Shown here: one piece after another, positions 1,905 to 62,383 of the stretch
Numbering within the stretch: position 1 is the first letter of the stretch
How the letters are laid out: every line of letters begins with the position of its first letter
Assembly (NCBI RefSeq): GCF_030684315.1
Contig: NW_026728203.1
Coordinates: forward strand, 62,001 to 126,000
Reading direction: 5' to 3'
Origin: Stegostoma tigrinum
Taxonomy: Eukaryota
DNA: 64,000 nucleotides
Position numbers and translations under genes: made by a program
The notes under the pieces: model-generated
Seen by the model: the letters and a program-made list of their open reading frames with translations, nothing else
Told to the model about the DNA's origin: nothing
Databases searched by the model: none

Positions 1905-4313
1905 TCAACGGAGTGGCAGCCTGTCAAACATGTACTCTCCCATGCCATTGTCAGGGGCTCCCAGTCTCTTCAGGTTGGTGATGTGATCTCCCAGCTTCTT
2001 GATCATCTTCACTTGCTTATCCAAGTAGTGCCTCTCCATGAAATCACAGCTGGAAGACAAAATTAATCCAACAAGGATCAAAAAATGTCAGTGACCTCCC
2101 ATGACAGAAGTGACCATCACCTCACTATGGGGGAGGGGCATGCAAGTGATGCCTTCACAAGGTTTTGTTTAAACATCCTGCAGGAGGCAGATAGAAAAAT
2201 AATTGGATTCCCCACCCTGGAAGTACACAAACAGATCACTTTCTTCCAGGAAAGGGATAAAACCTCACATGAGGGTCTATGTGGTCAGAGGCAAGTTTGT
2301 GCAGATCCAGCAGACTCTGGTTCACATCCTTCTCCATCTGCAGAGCTCTCTGCATCACCTCCAGACCATTGCCCCACTCATCCTGCTCTGGCTTCTGAAG
2401 CGAGGGAAGCAGGAACAGAAAGCACAGCTCAGCAGGCAGTTGTATCATTAGTCTACATCTGATCAGTTAGTTATCCCTCATCATTTCCAGGGGTTACATT
2501 CAGACAAAAAATTTTACTTGGATACAAAAACCCTCTAGATTTTATGCTGGTCTGAGAATAAAGAAATGTTAACATATCCCACTGTTACTGTGAATTCTGA
2601 AAGAAGTCGTATCTAGAATCAGTCGCAATGGAAGTAATCCCTTGCTTTACTGTTTGATGTAGTGACCAGAATGGTCCCAAGGCATTACAAACCTCTTCTG
2701 GATGTAGTGAGGTTGGATGCTGCTGCTTTTTGTAGCTGCAAGTTCTCAGCCTTACCTTTTGTTACCTCACCTTGTCCATATAGAGTCACATACAGGGACA
2801 TGTGCTCACCATCCAGTAGCCTGGATCATCTGAATTGCCTTCTGCTATTGAGTCACAAATGCAAAGTATTTCCCTTTTCCCTAAACAAATCCTGTTTTGG
2901 TGAACAACTTGCCCTTGACATAGTATTTGATCAATCCTGAAGCTAAATAGATGGAGATACCAGTCGATTGTAGCTGCTCAAAAAGCTGCAAACAGACAGA
3001 CATTCTCAGAATCCAACCTTGATGTCCTCGGGAGGACTCAGCCTCCACGTTTATTCTGGAATGCCATCAGTTTCTCAGCGTGTTCCCGCTCCTCATGGGA
3101 CTGCTCCTTGAAGAACTCAGCAAAGTGATGGAGGGCAACATCATCCTGGTCAAAGAGAGAGAACTGCAAACAGACAAAATGGGAAGTAAATTTCACTCAA
3201 TTCAGCTTGGTTTTGCTCACGAAATGGAAGTTAGATGGACAGTAAGAAGACAGGTATTTACATTTATGGTCATCCATAAACTAAACTAGACAGATATTTG
3301 TTCAAACATCTAGAAATAAAGATTAAGTAGCACCCGCTACAACCGCTGGTCGGTGACTTGGTGAGACAGTGCACGGTGACGGTCACAGCTGGCAACAGGC
3401 ATTAGACATCCCTGCACTGCAGGTCAGAAACACTATTACCCAGTGCTGGAAGCCAATCAGGGCATTGTCCAACAGAACGAAGGGGCATGTGCATGTTGAC
3501 CAAGAGAAGCTGAAATCTGAGCTCCTCACATTACCAACATCACTCATCTGATTTAGCCCCACTGTCCTAACACCTCATCTGCACAAGAGACAGTGACTGA
3601 TTTTTGTTCCAGATAATCCATCTTGGGAGTGGAAAAAGTCTGCTCCTCATAATTAGCAACTAAAAACCATGAAGGAAAGGTCACTGGACCAAAAACAGGA
3701 ACTGATTTCTCACCACAGATCCTACCAGACCCACTAAGCTTTTCCAGCAGCTCATTTTAGTCTTTTATTTCCAGTAGTTAATCACAGTTAGGATGCTTAT
3801 TAAAAAAAAGGCTTCATTAAAAGGACAAGATATAAAAAGTTAGATTTGGACTGATGCAGGCTTCCACAAGGATGTAAATGATTTCAAATATAAATGGGCC
3901 ATTGATATCAACATGGAAGGAGGAGTTGAATTAAGAAGCAGAACCAGGCCATCCCTCAGCACCAAAAATGTGCTCTGCCCAGAATTACAACATACTGGGG
4001 ACTCCTAGACAAGAGCCAGCTCCAACACAAGACAAGCTTAAAATTGCTACAGAATTAGTATTAAGAGCACTCACAGGATTCATTCCAGGAAGGACAACAG
4101 ACACGATATATGGTAGTACTAAATCATTGAGCAAGAAGCCACTTAAAGGCTCAGTACAATCATATCACAGCCCTAACACTGAAATAGACCATTCAAGATC
4201 ACAAGTCTCACCATGGAGAGGTAAACATAGGAGGAATAAAGCTCCAGGTTGATCTGTTTGTTCACAGCATCCTCACAGTCCTTGTGGTAATTCTGACACA
4301 CTTGGGAGGCCAT
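1905..4313 (-). pseudogene. Ferritin copy 1 (M/heavy-B-like) pseudogene; exons 4313-4212, 3163-3018, 2394-2269, 2049-1905
   Basis: Exon 1 reads [34 protein letters not shown]. Exon 2 has CGA>TGA (tca at 3038-3040) and a 1-bp deletion (146 vs 147 bp). Exon 4 has a 2-bp deletion at its start (145 bp), giving CTG TGA after splicing. Confidence 0.92.
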
Positions 4314-4349
4314 CATCACTAGCCTTGTTCATTAAAACCAAGACCACCC

Positions 4350-60094: not shown

Positions 60095-62383
60095 TCAGCT
60101 GAGTGTGAGCTTGTCAAACAGGTACTCTCCCGTGCCATTGGCAGGGGCTCCCAGTCTCTTCAGGTTGGTGATGTGATCTCCCAGCTTCTTGATCATCTTC
60201 ACTTGCTCATCCAAGTAGTGCCTCTCCAGGAAGTCACACAGCTGGAAGACAAATAATCCAGATGATCAAAAAGGAGTCTGAAAGTGACCTCCCATCACAG
60301 ATGTGACCATCATCACTAAGCAGATGTGGACTCGGGTGATGCCTTGGAAAGGTTTTGTTTTAACAGCCTGCCGGAGGCTGGGAGAAGGTAATTGGATTTT
60401 TAACCCAGAGAGTGCACAAACACACCACTTTCTTCCAAGGAAAGAGAAAGAGTTTACAAACTCACATGAGGGTCAGTGTTGCCAGAGGAGAGTTTGTGCA
60501 GATCCAGCAGACTCTGGTTCACATCCTTCTCCATCTGCAGAGCTCTCTGCATTGCCTCCAGACCATTGCCCCACTCATCCTGCTCTGGCTTCTGGAGGGA
60601 GGGAAGCAGGAACAGAAAGCACAGTTCAGCAGGCAGTTGTGTCATTAGTCTACATCAGATCAGTTAGTTATCCCTCATCATTGTAGGGGAGGTACTGCAA
60701 ACCAACTTTAATTTGAAGACAACAACTAGATTTTGTACTGAGAGAATAACAAATTTTCTAAACACATTCTACTGTTAATGTAGATTCTCAGAATTCACAT
60801 GTAGAGAATAGGTACCAATGGAAGTAATTCCTGACTTCACTATTGTGGTGTTAGAAACATCTTCCAGATTCAGAAAGGCTGGACACTGCTACTTTCCACA
60901 CTGCAACAATTTCCTGTCTTAGCTTTTGTGACCTCATTCTGTCTGAAGGAGAGTCATTCACATTGATATCTACTCACTATTCTGGTTCCTCTCAATTGCC
61001 CTCATAAGTGCAGAGTATTTCCTTTCACCTAAAGTAATCCTATTTTGGTGAACACCCTCCCCTTCACACAGTATTTGTTCAAGGCTAAAGCTAAATAGAT
61101 GGAGATACCAGTCGATTGTAGCTGCTCACAAAAAGCTGCAAACAGAAGGCTTCAGAATCTAACCTTGATGTCCTGCAGGATGACTCGACCTCCACGTTTA
61201 TTCTGGAAGGCCATCAGTTTCTCAGCGTGTTCCCGTTCCTCATGGGACTGCTCCTTGAAGAACTCAGCAAAGTGATGCAGAGCAACATCATCCCGGTCAA
61301 AGTAAGAGAACTGTGGGAAGAGAGGCTAAAAGGAAACTGTCTGAAATTCATGAATGACACTCCTCACTCAGGAACTAACCTGGGCACCATCTTGATTCCA
61401 CATTTAAGTGGTTAAAAACAGACAAAGCAGGAAGTCACCTTCCATGGATGATGAAGGGGACAGCTGTCTATAGCCATTAGACATCCGTGCTCTGCAGGTT
61501 AGAAACACTATTGTTCAGGAGGTGGAGACCAGTTCAGCCCCTGTCCAACTGAATGAAGGGACATGTGTTCATTAACACAACCAGAAAGCTCAGTCAGCAG
61601 TCTCATTATCACTATCACCCACCTGAATAACCGCAGTGTCCTACCACCCACTCCACAGAATTTTAACTGCTTTGTTAGAGAGAAAGAAAAAAATACATAC
61701 ATAGTCTGAAAATGTGCCTCTTCCCTCACATTGCATAGCTCAAAGCCACTTCTGAAAAAGGGTCAGTGGACCCAGAGCTTTGATTTCTTCCAGCTCTGTA
61801 GAGCTTTTCTAGCTATTTTTGTTAGTGTTTAATGTCTAGCAGCAGCTGTTCTTTTAGTTCAGGGAACTTTACATCTTGAGCACAAGACAGTCCAGTGAAT
61901 AGGGCAAGGTTTTAAAAAAGGAGTATATTTGTGTCAGGAAAAGTTTCCACCAGGGAAGGCTTTTGTTGAGAAAAGGAATACAACCAAAGTTTTACAAAAA
62001 AAATTGACCAAGACCAGATCATCCCTCCAGAGTTAGATGAAAAATCACCAAGGGTTACATTGTCCAGAGACAGCAAGCTGGGCATCCACATCCAGGAGCC
62101 AGTTGGACATGAAGACAATGTTCAAAACTTGACCAGAGAGTCAGTGTTAAGACCTGCACTAGATTGCAACAGGGGAAGGGCCACAGAAAATAATACATGT
62201 TACAGCTAATTCATTAACTCAGCATAAAAACCAAACAGGTCAACACTATCATAGCACAGGCTTCAATTCCACAAAGCTCACCATGGAGAGGTAAACATAG
62301 GAGGAATAGAGCTCCAGGTTGATCTGCTTGTTAACAGCATCCTCACAGTCCTTGTGGTAGTTCTGACACACTCGGGAAACCAT
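60095..62383 (-). CDS. Ferritin copy 10, 173 aa; exons 62383-62282, 61310-61164, 60591-60466, 60241-60095
   Basis: Open frame, canonical splice sites, TATAAATA at 62453-62460. C-terminus [18 protein letters not shown]. Confidence 0.93.

Follow-up and report, generated by a model that had tools for sequence, protein, structure and literature searches.

The question raised by this locus is what ten ferritin genes in a row are doing in a shark genome. The window, that is the whole stretch of 64,000 nucleotides analyzed here on contig NW_026728203.1 (C216) of Stegostoma tigrinum, carries ten ferritin copies on the minus strand within positions 1905-62383, spaced 5.1-7.8 kb apart. Exon, ORF and splice-site models bore out the five intact and five broken same-strand copies proposed by the first-pass annotation, but its description as four-exon copies held for eight of the ten only, c3 and c6 both lacking exon 1. 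The intact copies (c2, c4, c5, c7 and c10) each present a 173-aa ORF with GT-AG splice sites.

1905..4313, minus strand: ferritin copy c1, pseudogene (stop at codon 76, 1-nt deletion in exon 2, exon 4 short by 2 bases)
5496..6660, minus strand: LINE reverse-transcriptase 3' fragment in a spacer, with kin near 17.3-18.4, 36.3-37.5 and 51.0-52.1 kb
8757..11032, minus strand: ferritin copy c2, intact, 173 aa (exons 11032-10931, 9963-9817, 9243-9118, 8903-8757)
9244..9353, minus strand: last 110 nt of intron 2 in c2, a segment found in 10/10 copies and far more conserved than the remaining intron
15440..16649, minus strand: ferritin copy c3, broken (exons 2-4, without exon 1; exon-2 acceptor GG)
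20560..22955, minus strand: ferritin copy c4, intact, 173 aa
27378..29768, minus strand: ferritin copy c5, intact 173-aa frame (TATA box changed to TAGAAA)
34527..35713, minus strand: ferritin copy c6, broken (exons 2-4; exon 1 and promoter absent)
39611..42299, minus strand: ferritin copy c7, intact, 173 aa
47374..49783, minus strand: ferritin copy c8, pseudogene (stop at codon 76, exon 4 short by 2 bases)
54232..57172, minus strand: ferritin copy c9, probably a pseudogene (the donor of exon 2 reads AT)
60095..62383, minus strand: ferritin copy c10, intact, 173 aa

Matches to Pfam Ferritin PF00210 were obtained on all four exons of c4, with exons 2 and 3 exceeding the curated cut-off, and an exon-3 31-mer occurs 180 times genome-wide against 0 control matches; taken together, these results indicate that the ferritin array is not a chance resemblance. 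The exons measure 102/147/126/147 nt and are separated by three phase-0 introns at conserved places, as in the two IRE-bearing ferritin genes of this genome. The presence of introns and the tandem layout rule out a processed retrocopy family of the mammalian FTH1/FTL type for the window copies and, with 5/10 copies broken, support the tandem expansion of intron-containing ferritins with many dead members that had been proposed. Upstream of c2, CCAAT and TATA boxes and a short 5' UTR without IRE were recognized. Among the broken copies, c1 and c8 are one pseudogene lineage, the match of c3 to an intact intron 1 stops ~100 nt upstream of exon 2, and c9 presents a ~210-nt insertion in its 5' UTR (57429-57219). 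The spacer LINE fragment is presumably CR1-like, judging from its motifs, and Tandem Repeats Finder found no short-period tandem arrays in the window.

The window holds ten members of a genuine shark tandem array of ~200 ferritin genes (array A). As anticipated, this array runs past both window ends: all 267,032 bases of C216 are array, with 38 copies, 15 of them intact, and a bigger block lies on another contig (C50), where 181 copies with at least 3 exons, 96 of them intact, were modeled across the 1.36 Mb read. A further 31 exon-1 matches lie outside the part read, in the 0.3 Mb of C50:20.10-20.40 Mb. Over both contigs, 108 of the 219 modeled copies are not intact. Multi-gene duplication blocks of 20-60 kb share 99.2-99.6% identity, and pseudogenes too were copied inside them.

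The earlier worry about haplotype duplicates leaves the array itself unrefuted and is live for C216, as the collinear twin of the window in C50 (99.3-99.7%) makes it a possible haplotype duplicate. The chances seem to us evenly balanced that C216 represents the alternative haplotype of some of the C50 array, or a mis-placed duplicate of it, in which case the haploid count is not raised by the ten copies. Window positions 1-41019 and 41372-64000 are collinear with C50:21,039,582-20,975,284 at 99.68% and 99.28%, C50:20.40-21.56 Mb is free of gaps, and the start region of C216 recurs at its end (99.86% over 21.9 kb). However, paralogous blocks within C50 are equally alike (99.2-99.65% over 20-44 kb), C216 145-247 kb has nearly no long match in C50:20.84-21.70 Mb, and unique flanks in two DNA samples present 0-1 substitutions per several kb, below the 0.3-0.5% that separates the window from its C50 twin. 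This reading bears on the copy number alone and does not conflict with the maternal iron store proposed below.

Shark ferritin clusters are already known. Sahm et al. (2024) (10.1101/2024.09.09.611499) report FTL/FTH1 clusters in the Greenland and white sharks, that of the Greenland shark being ovary-specific. Yang et al. (2026) (PMC13214024) describe FTH1b tandem clusters in the Greenland shark, whose 59 copies are called the highest number of 13 cartilaginous fishes and are linked to ferroptosis and longevity. The published clusters resemble array A: they are big tandem ferritin clusters on a single chromosome, with some copies 5'-truncated and a copy number raised across sharks. Stegostoma, a carpet shark to which the locus is assigned also by 92-98% protein identity, nevertheless presents 96 intact copies in the read part of one array, against 59 in the Greenland shark. 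This higher number weakens the link with longevity and, being obtained by direct modeling, suggests that annotation-based counts understate shark arrays. In our tree, array A falls within a clade of elasmobranch multi-copy ferritins of 44 rows, including Carcharodon, Pristiophorus, Heptranchias and Pristis (support 98/97); as Greenland shark sequences are outside this tree, it is this common shark clade that supports orthology to the published clusters. Array-type proteins occur across sharks and in a ray, and with shark clusters already published, the expansion is not the lineage-specific one first supposed. New here are the absence of IRE, the exon-limited homogenization, the L-like second array, the array-derived retrocopies and the intact count. 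Gene conversion is mentioned in the searched passages of neither Yang et al. (PMC13214024) nor Sahm et al. (10.1101/2024.09.09.611499), the terms iron-responsive, ferroxidase and pseudogene are absent from those of Yang et al., and the term iron from those of Sahm et al.

By its domain, residues and gene structure, array A is predicted to encode a ferroxidase-active ferritin of the H/M type. All seven ferroxidase residues, which we take to be E27, Y34, E61, E62, H65, E107 and Q141 (human H numbering), are kept in 110 of the 111 intact copies, and the minor-residue frequency is 0.002 at these sites against 0.039 overall. In the three-fold channel, D131 is found in 90/90 copies and E134 in 89/90. 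The solved structures closest to an array protein of the bamboo shark are those of bullfrog M ferritin (PDB 1MFR and its variants), and the shark genes share with bullfrog M and vertebrate H ferritins the four phase-0 exons and the ferroxidase and three-fold-channel residues. Most array A copies have a C-terminus shorter by 3 residues, and identity with the two IRE-bearing ferritins of the genome is only 72-74%. The proposal that slightly different window subunits mix in 24-mers loses ground, as their differences concern 2-3% of nonsynonymous sites and leave the catalytic residues untouched; a second, L-like array (array B), rather than the other window copies, is the candidate source of a partner in mixed 24-mers.

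Array A copies are not canonical IRE/IRP-regulated ferritin genes, whereas vertebrate H and M/L mRNAs are under IRE control and the neighboring single gene bears an IRE. No IRE was found in the window (RF00037, E up to 1). The genome-wide search, in which 82 candidates were scored, gave 2 matches, both in single genes (C20:18.05 Mb and C50:21.609 Mb), and among 13 loci scanned the 5 belonging to array B had none. The array 5' UTRs are ~70 nt long; those of c2 and c4 have no stronger fold than shuffled sequences, while the C50:21.609 IRE folds better than its shuffles (z -3.9), and a loose IRE-loop motif occurs in 2/92 upstream regions of array copies.

What, then, would so many genes be for? 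The explanation that we favor, and hold to be reasonably probable from sequence evidence, is that the ~200 IRE-less ferroxidase-type genes of array A would give oocytes a very large, iron-independent ferritin dose, as a maternal iron store. Oocyte supply, one of the roles initially put forward, is thus a good candidate. Dispersed retrocopies are present on C2, C5, C11 and C43, and among the four fetched, three were closest to array A, one to array B and none to the IRE genes, which implies germline transcription of the arrays. Egg provisioning is the role to which IRE loss, germline retrocopies and the second L-like array together point. Contigs spliced at the exact intron joints and 95-97% like c2 were also detected in sequencing runs of other organisms, at far lower depth than contigs that resemble the IRE gene. 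Mechanistically, unequal crossing-over would copy whole blocks, dead genes included, exon-confined gene conversion would homogenize the coding sequence over very old intron lineages, and purifying selection would hold exons similar enough to recombine. Lacking the IRE, translation would be free of IRP repression, and output would track gene number and an ovary promoter (CCAAT and TATA). The IRE-less array B, with its L-like substitutions, may supply a co-assembling nucleation-type subunit, which is the least supported step; we infer both the loading of oocytes with iron and the co-assembly of A with B.

Ferritin as a maternal iron store has parallels in snail yolk ferritin and Xenopus oocyte isoforms, neither of which is a giant array. 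The mRNA of snail yolk ferritin is likewise not known to carry an IRE. This ferritin is secreted, whereas the shark array proteins have no leader.

A somatic dosage expansion that would protect against oxidants, control ferroptosis or withhold iron, as has been proposed for Greenland shark FTH1b and snailfish fthl27, appears unlikely. Some FTH1b copies are transcribed in fin and blood (PMC13214024), so that expression is not strictly ovarian; overexpression of fthl27 decreases ROS in cells (PMC10746142), and the ferroxidase centre is intact in array A. Nevertheless, the largest cluster is ovary-specific in Sahm et al. (10.1101/2024.09.09.611499), the retrocopies indicate germline mRNA, somatic iron control is still served by the IRE-bearing single genes, and the intact copies counted here outnumber the 59 tied to longevity. 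The hadal snailfish fthl27 is likewise a tandem fish ferritin, with 14 copies expressed in most tissues (PMC10746142), but it is an order of magnitude smaller and recent.

Array B, of which a minor part was read, contains at least 79 copies, and we estimate 80-170. The L-chain-like substitutions E62K and Q141E were found in 9/9 modeled copies, and the next-best matches are proteins of squamates and of one caecilian annotated as 'ferritin light chain, oocyte isoform-like'. Its grouping with oocyte L chains is weak (support 86/30), the quick and careful trees being in disagreement. We tentatively suggest that array A and the IRE-less array B might be co-expressed in oocytes and co-assemble as H/L-type heteropolymers, in a ratio set by dosage, with exon-limited conversion acting within each array. 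If so, a two-array maternal store would have re-invented the H/L division of labour independently, and the shark ferritin expansion would be recast as reproductive rather than longevity-related.

Across 71 distinct CDS of array A, pN/pS is 0.33, a high value for ferritin which suggests relaxed selection on many intact frames, and a clean TATA box is missing in 18/71. A largely neutral, runaway tandem expansion with few functional copies would account for this value and for the half of copies that are pseudogenes, but we judge it improbable given the near-invariant catalytic residues, the persistence of the array across shark orders and the presence of a second independent array.

In 2804 of the 4186 distinct intact CDS pairs, all three introns are <25% alignable, and yet the four-fold-site difference is 0.092; the free synonymous divergence that birth-and-death predicts for old duplicates was not observed. 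Exons share an ungapped identity of 0.81-1.00, which has dropped to 0.23-0.38 by 10-30 nt beyond each splice site and the stop. Exon 1 is identical in 9/45 intron-lineage pairs, whereas no identical exon 2 was found between intron lineages (0/1319 pairs), suggesting that conversion is slow or patchy. In the tree, array proteins cluster by shark lineage. Homogenized exons, with ~9% difference at four-fold sites, next to unalignable introns point to exon-limited gene conversion atop birth-and-death. The initial birth-and-death interpretation thus stands for the many pseudogenes and the >99% recent blocks, but not for synonymous sites homogenized between copies with unalignable introns.

Pure birth-and-death without conversion, in which selection alone would hold coding likeness, synonymous sites included, while introns turn over fast by indels, is in our opinion a poor explanation. 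About half of copies are broken, broken copies recur in duplicated blocks, recent blocks are at 99.2-99.6%, and cross-lineage exon 2 is never identical, all of which it would explain. Against it, four-fold sites are not intrinsically constrained, since they differ by 0.317 between arrays A and B and by 0.46 and 0.63 between array A and the IRE genes, and their base use shows no strong bias. Furthermore, alignable introns differ ~3x more than four-fold sites (0.25 vs 0.08), and decayed pseudogenes retain exon 4 (0.90-0.93) above exon 2 (0.75-0.81). Conversion templated by mRNA is less likely, as 3' UTRs are unhomogenized, introns are retained and one tract reaches 110 nt into intron 2.

Concerted evolution restricted to coding exons is a feature of the clustered protocadherins, where exons are likewise homogenized while introns and 3' UTRs diverge freely; in the shark, it concerns whole four-exon genes of a housekeeping family, in ~200 copies. 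Our literature search found no paper on exon-limited concerted evolution in ferritin. The array therefore offers an unusually clean vertebrate case of concerted evolution over birth-and-death.

The conserved 110-nt segment of intron 2 is most likely a conversion tract extending out of exon 3. In the window copies it carries, near the 3' splice site, a box C/D-like motif (ATGATGA ... CTGA ... ATGATA ... CTGA), whose only match to a known family was the archaeal sR1, below threshold (36.4 bits, gathering score 45). The motif is present in 48/92 distinct intact copies, the size of the largest intron-2 lineage, its box C is mutated in several copies, and it is absent from the IRE gene. An intronic box C/D snoRNA is thus improbable: the motif belongs to a single intron lineage, its boxes are subject to mutation, and it lies directly against exon 3, as a conversion tract would.

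Regarding the surroundings of the array, the Heterodontus gene model P0001 combines array copies with the ortholog of the gene flanking the array here. As for synteny with human FTL-GYS1, glycogen synthase was located on C20 and C33 and not on C50. An intron-containing ferritin with a mitochondrial-type presequence, at C50:21.59 Mb, also neighbors the array, and is conserved in sharks and a ray.

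Ten ferritin copies were located on the minus strand of the window by six-frame motif search and exon mapping, from 62383 (c10) to 1905 (c1), with neighbours spaced 5.1-7.8 kb and exons matching Pfam Ferritin. Exon mapping upheld the five intact and five broken copies counted in the first-pass annotation; the four-exon structure it gave to all of them holds for eight, as c3 and c6 have three exons each, without exon 1 and promoter. Copies c2, c4, c5, c7 and c10 are intact (ATG, GT-AG sites, 173-aa frame), c1 and c8 are broken alike (stop at codon 76, exon 4 shortened by two bases), and in c9 the exon-2 donor reads AT and the 5' UTR carries about 210 nt of inserted sequence. 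The spacers are one unit in diverged copies, carrying LINE fragments. The codon-76-stop lineage was also seen at least 15 times on contig C50 (20.95-21.43 Mb), inside duplicated blocks.

In the 3.2-Gb genome, an exon-3 31-mer occurred 180 times and an exon-1 23-mer 171 times, against 0 for control k-mers. We modelled the window's contig C216 completely (267,032 bases, the window being 62001-126000), together with two stretches of C50 that total 1.36 Mb (19.90-20.10 and 20.40-21.56 Mb, including a 33-kb N run). Leaving out fragments with fewer than three exons, we detected 38 copies on C216 (15 intact) and 181 on the C50 stretches (96 intact). Since the remaining 0.3 Mb of the C50 array gave 31 further exact exon-1 matches, this array (array A) comprises at least about 210 copies on C50, on both strands of 19.949-21.556 Mb. 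The suggestion that the array runs past the window was thus confirmed, both by the whole of C216 and by the larger C50 block. The strand flips several times mid-array (C50:20.41-20.46 and 20.58-20.82 Mb); the right-hand C50 block and C216 are on a single strand. Carpet sharks supply the closest named relatives of the array proteins; Stegostoma tigrinum proteins among the top hits reach 92-98%.

It had been considered that the array might consist mostly of misassembled haplotype duplicates. A gap-free stretch of C50 (21,039,582-20,975,284) is collinear with the entire window, at 99.68% for 41 kb and 99.28% for 22.7 kb, and C216 may therefore be the other haplotype. However, blocks within C50 resemble each other just as closely (99.2-99.65% over 20-44 kb), and some 100 kb of C216 finds hardly any long match in C50:20.84-21.70. 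We regard the chances that C216 is a haplotig of part of the C50 array as evenly balanced. Array A is real in either case, because C50 by itself carries 11 intron-2 lineages among the 92 distinct intact coding sequences of the pool with C216. At the last copy, unique contig depth was 3-7 against a summed exon depth of 1,700-5,200 in DNA run 1, and 15-23 against 10,900-27,000 in run 2; these sums are not copy numbers, both runs may be the source of the assembly, and the depths agree with hundreds of ferritin copies, nothing more. The end of C216 (245,135-267,032) repeats 10,824-32,721 at 99.86% over 21.9 kb, either a very recent duplication or an assembly loop.

We compared distinct intact copies in 4186 pairs; in 2804 of these, none of the three introns reached 25% alignable sequence. 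In these pairs, four-fold sites differ by 0.092 (maximum 0.211), against 0.32-0.63 between the array and this genome's remaining ferritin genes; pairs with introns aligning at about 75% differ by 0.08. Across ten intron lineages, identity falls to background within 10-30 nt of each splice site and of the stop. Among 45 lineage pairs, 9 share an identical exon 1, 4 an identical exon 4, 2 an identical exon 3 and 0 an identical exon 2. The simplest reading of these patterns would be exon-limited gene conversion, which would homogenise coding sequence, together with unequal crossing-over, which would copy multi-gene blocks, broken genes included. Birth-and-death evolution, as first proposed, is thus half of the picture, the exons being homogenised despite unalignable introns.

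Among window copies, likeness over the final 110 nt of intron 2 is 86-99%, against 72-99% for the remainder of that intron. A box C/D-like motif lies at this 3' end (window 9276-9337, minus strand, and the matching place in all ten copies), and its 29-mer has 58 exact genome matches, all in C50:20.94-21.49 Mb and C216. This stretch is probably a conversion tract; that the motif is a snoRNA seems improbable.

The seven ferroxidase residues, in human H numbering (E27, Y34, E61, E62, H65, E107, Q141), are all present in 110 of 111 intact copies and vary at 0.002, against 0.039 overall. The pN/pS of 0.33 (71 distinct coding sequences) indicates purifying yet loose selection. The best structure matches of a bamboo-shark array protein were bullfrog M and human H ferritin. 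The phylogeny suggested by the first-pass annotation was run on 87 proteins, with bootstrap values that were not fully stable. It places the array-A-type proteins, which come from sharks and a ray, in a single clade (98/97) separate from this genome's genes bearing an iron-responsive element (IRE), with grouping by lineage inside it (carpet sharks 99/91, Pristiophorus 88/89, Mustelus 87/93).

By Rfam search, the window has no IRE. Among the 82 candidates scored genome-wide, two IREs were found, both above cut-off and each at a single gene: one lies on C20, the other at C50:21.609 Mb, 53 kb beyond array A. Array copies have a CCAAT box (70/71), a TATA box (53/71) and a 5' UTR of about 70 nt folding no better than shuffles. 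We infer that array A would escape the IRE control of ferritin translation (PMC11719527).

Ferritin features outside array A
C50:12,987,143-14,403,987, array B, tandem ferritin array, at least 79 copies, no IRE found (5 loci)
C50:21.570-21.580 Mb, single ferritin gene flanking array A
C50:21,591,488-21,601,900, plus strand, presequence ferritin gene with four exons, flanking array A
C50:21.609 Mb, single M-like ferritin gene with IRE, flanking array A
C50:21.659-21.670 Mb, single ferritin gene without several ferroxidase residues, flanking array A
C11, C2, C5 and C43, processed ferritin pseudogenes from arrays A and B

Of four dispersed retrocopies sampled, three match array A (82-90%) and one array B (80%), against only 67-72% for any single-copy ferritin gene; this best match to the arrays implies past germline transcription. 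Also, sequencing runs from three other organisms, whose RNA status is guessed, gave spliced contigs of the array gene type with exact 214- and 573-nt intron joints, at low depth relative to IRE-gene-like contigs; one contig covers all four exons and shows 19 differences over 529 nt. The largest Greenland shark ferritin cluster has ovary-specific expression (10.1101/2024.09.09.611499), and some FTH1b copies are expressed in fin and blood (Yang et al., PMC13214024).

Shark ferritin arrays of the same kind have been published, and ours is a further, real one. Sahm et al. count 155 copies of FTL and 179 of FTH1, in clusters that share synteny with white shark (10.1101/2024.09.09.611499). Yang et al., who used another S. 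tigrinum assembly (3.8 Gb), report FTH1b raised in sharks, with the largest number of the 13 species, 59 copies, in Greenland shark (PMC13214024). Snailfish fthl27 has 14 copies (PMC10746142). Our searches, in literature mostly outside subscription journals, turned up nothing on IRE loss, on conversion or on a second array of L-like type. We lean towards an IRE-free ferritin dosage for the oocyte, maintained by conversion and birth-and-death; the array anatomy found here lets egg-provisioning and longevity readings be tested against each other.

A protein-query search that scored 144 out of 1543 candidates places at least 79 exon-4 places of array B at C50:12.99-14.40 Mb. Copies were spaced at roughly one per 8 kb across the 200 kb examined, and none lay at 14.41-14.45 Mb. 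Its protein is 73% identical to that of array A, and all nine modelled copies carry K62 and E141 (E62K, Q141E), substitutions also seen in mammalian L chains. Both arrays share the promoter order CCAAT, TGATG motif, TATA. Among the 36 proteins listed by one search, array B relatives in other carpet sharks formed clusters of 19-76 members.

The four single ferritin genes next to array A (C50:21.57-21.67 Mb) are divergent, and the one at 21.659-21.670 Mb resembles the frog L subunit. The presequence gene has a 61-residue N-terminal extension with 10 Arg/Lys and zero acidic residues, and is a candidate intron-containing mitochondrial ferritin, which would be independent of the intronless mammalian gene; our literature search found no paper on such a gene. 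Orthologs with a 27-60-residue extension of the same composition were detected in Rhincodon, Chiloscyllium, Scyliorhinus, Heptranchias, Mustelus, Heterodontus and the ray Narcine.
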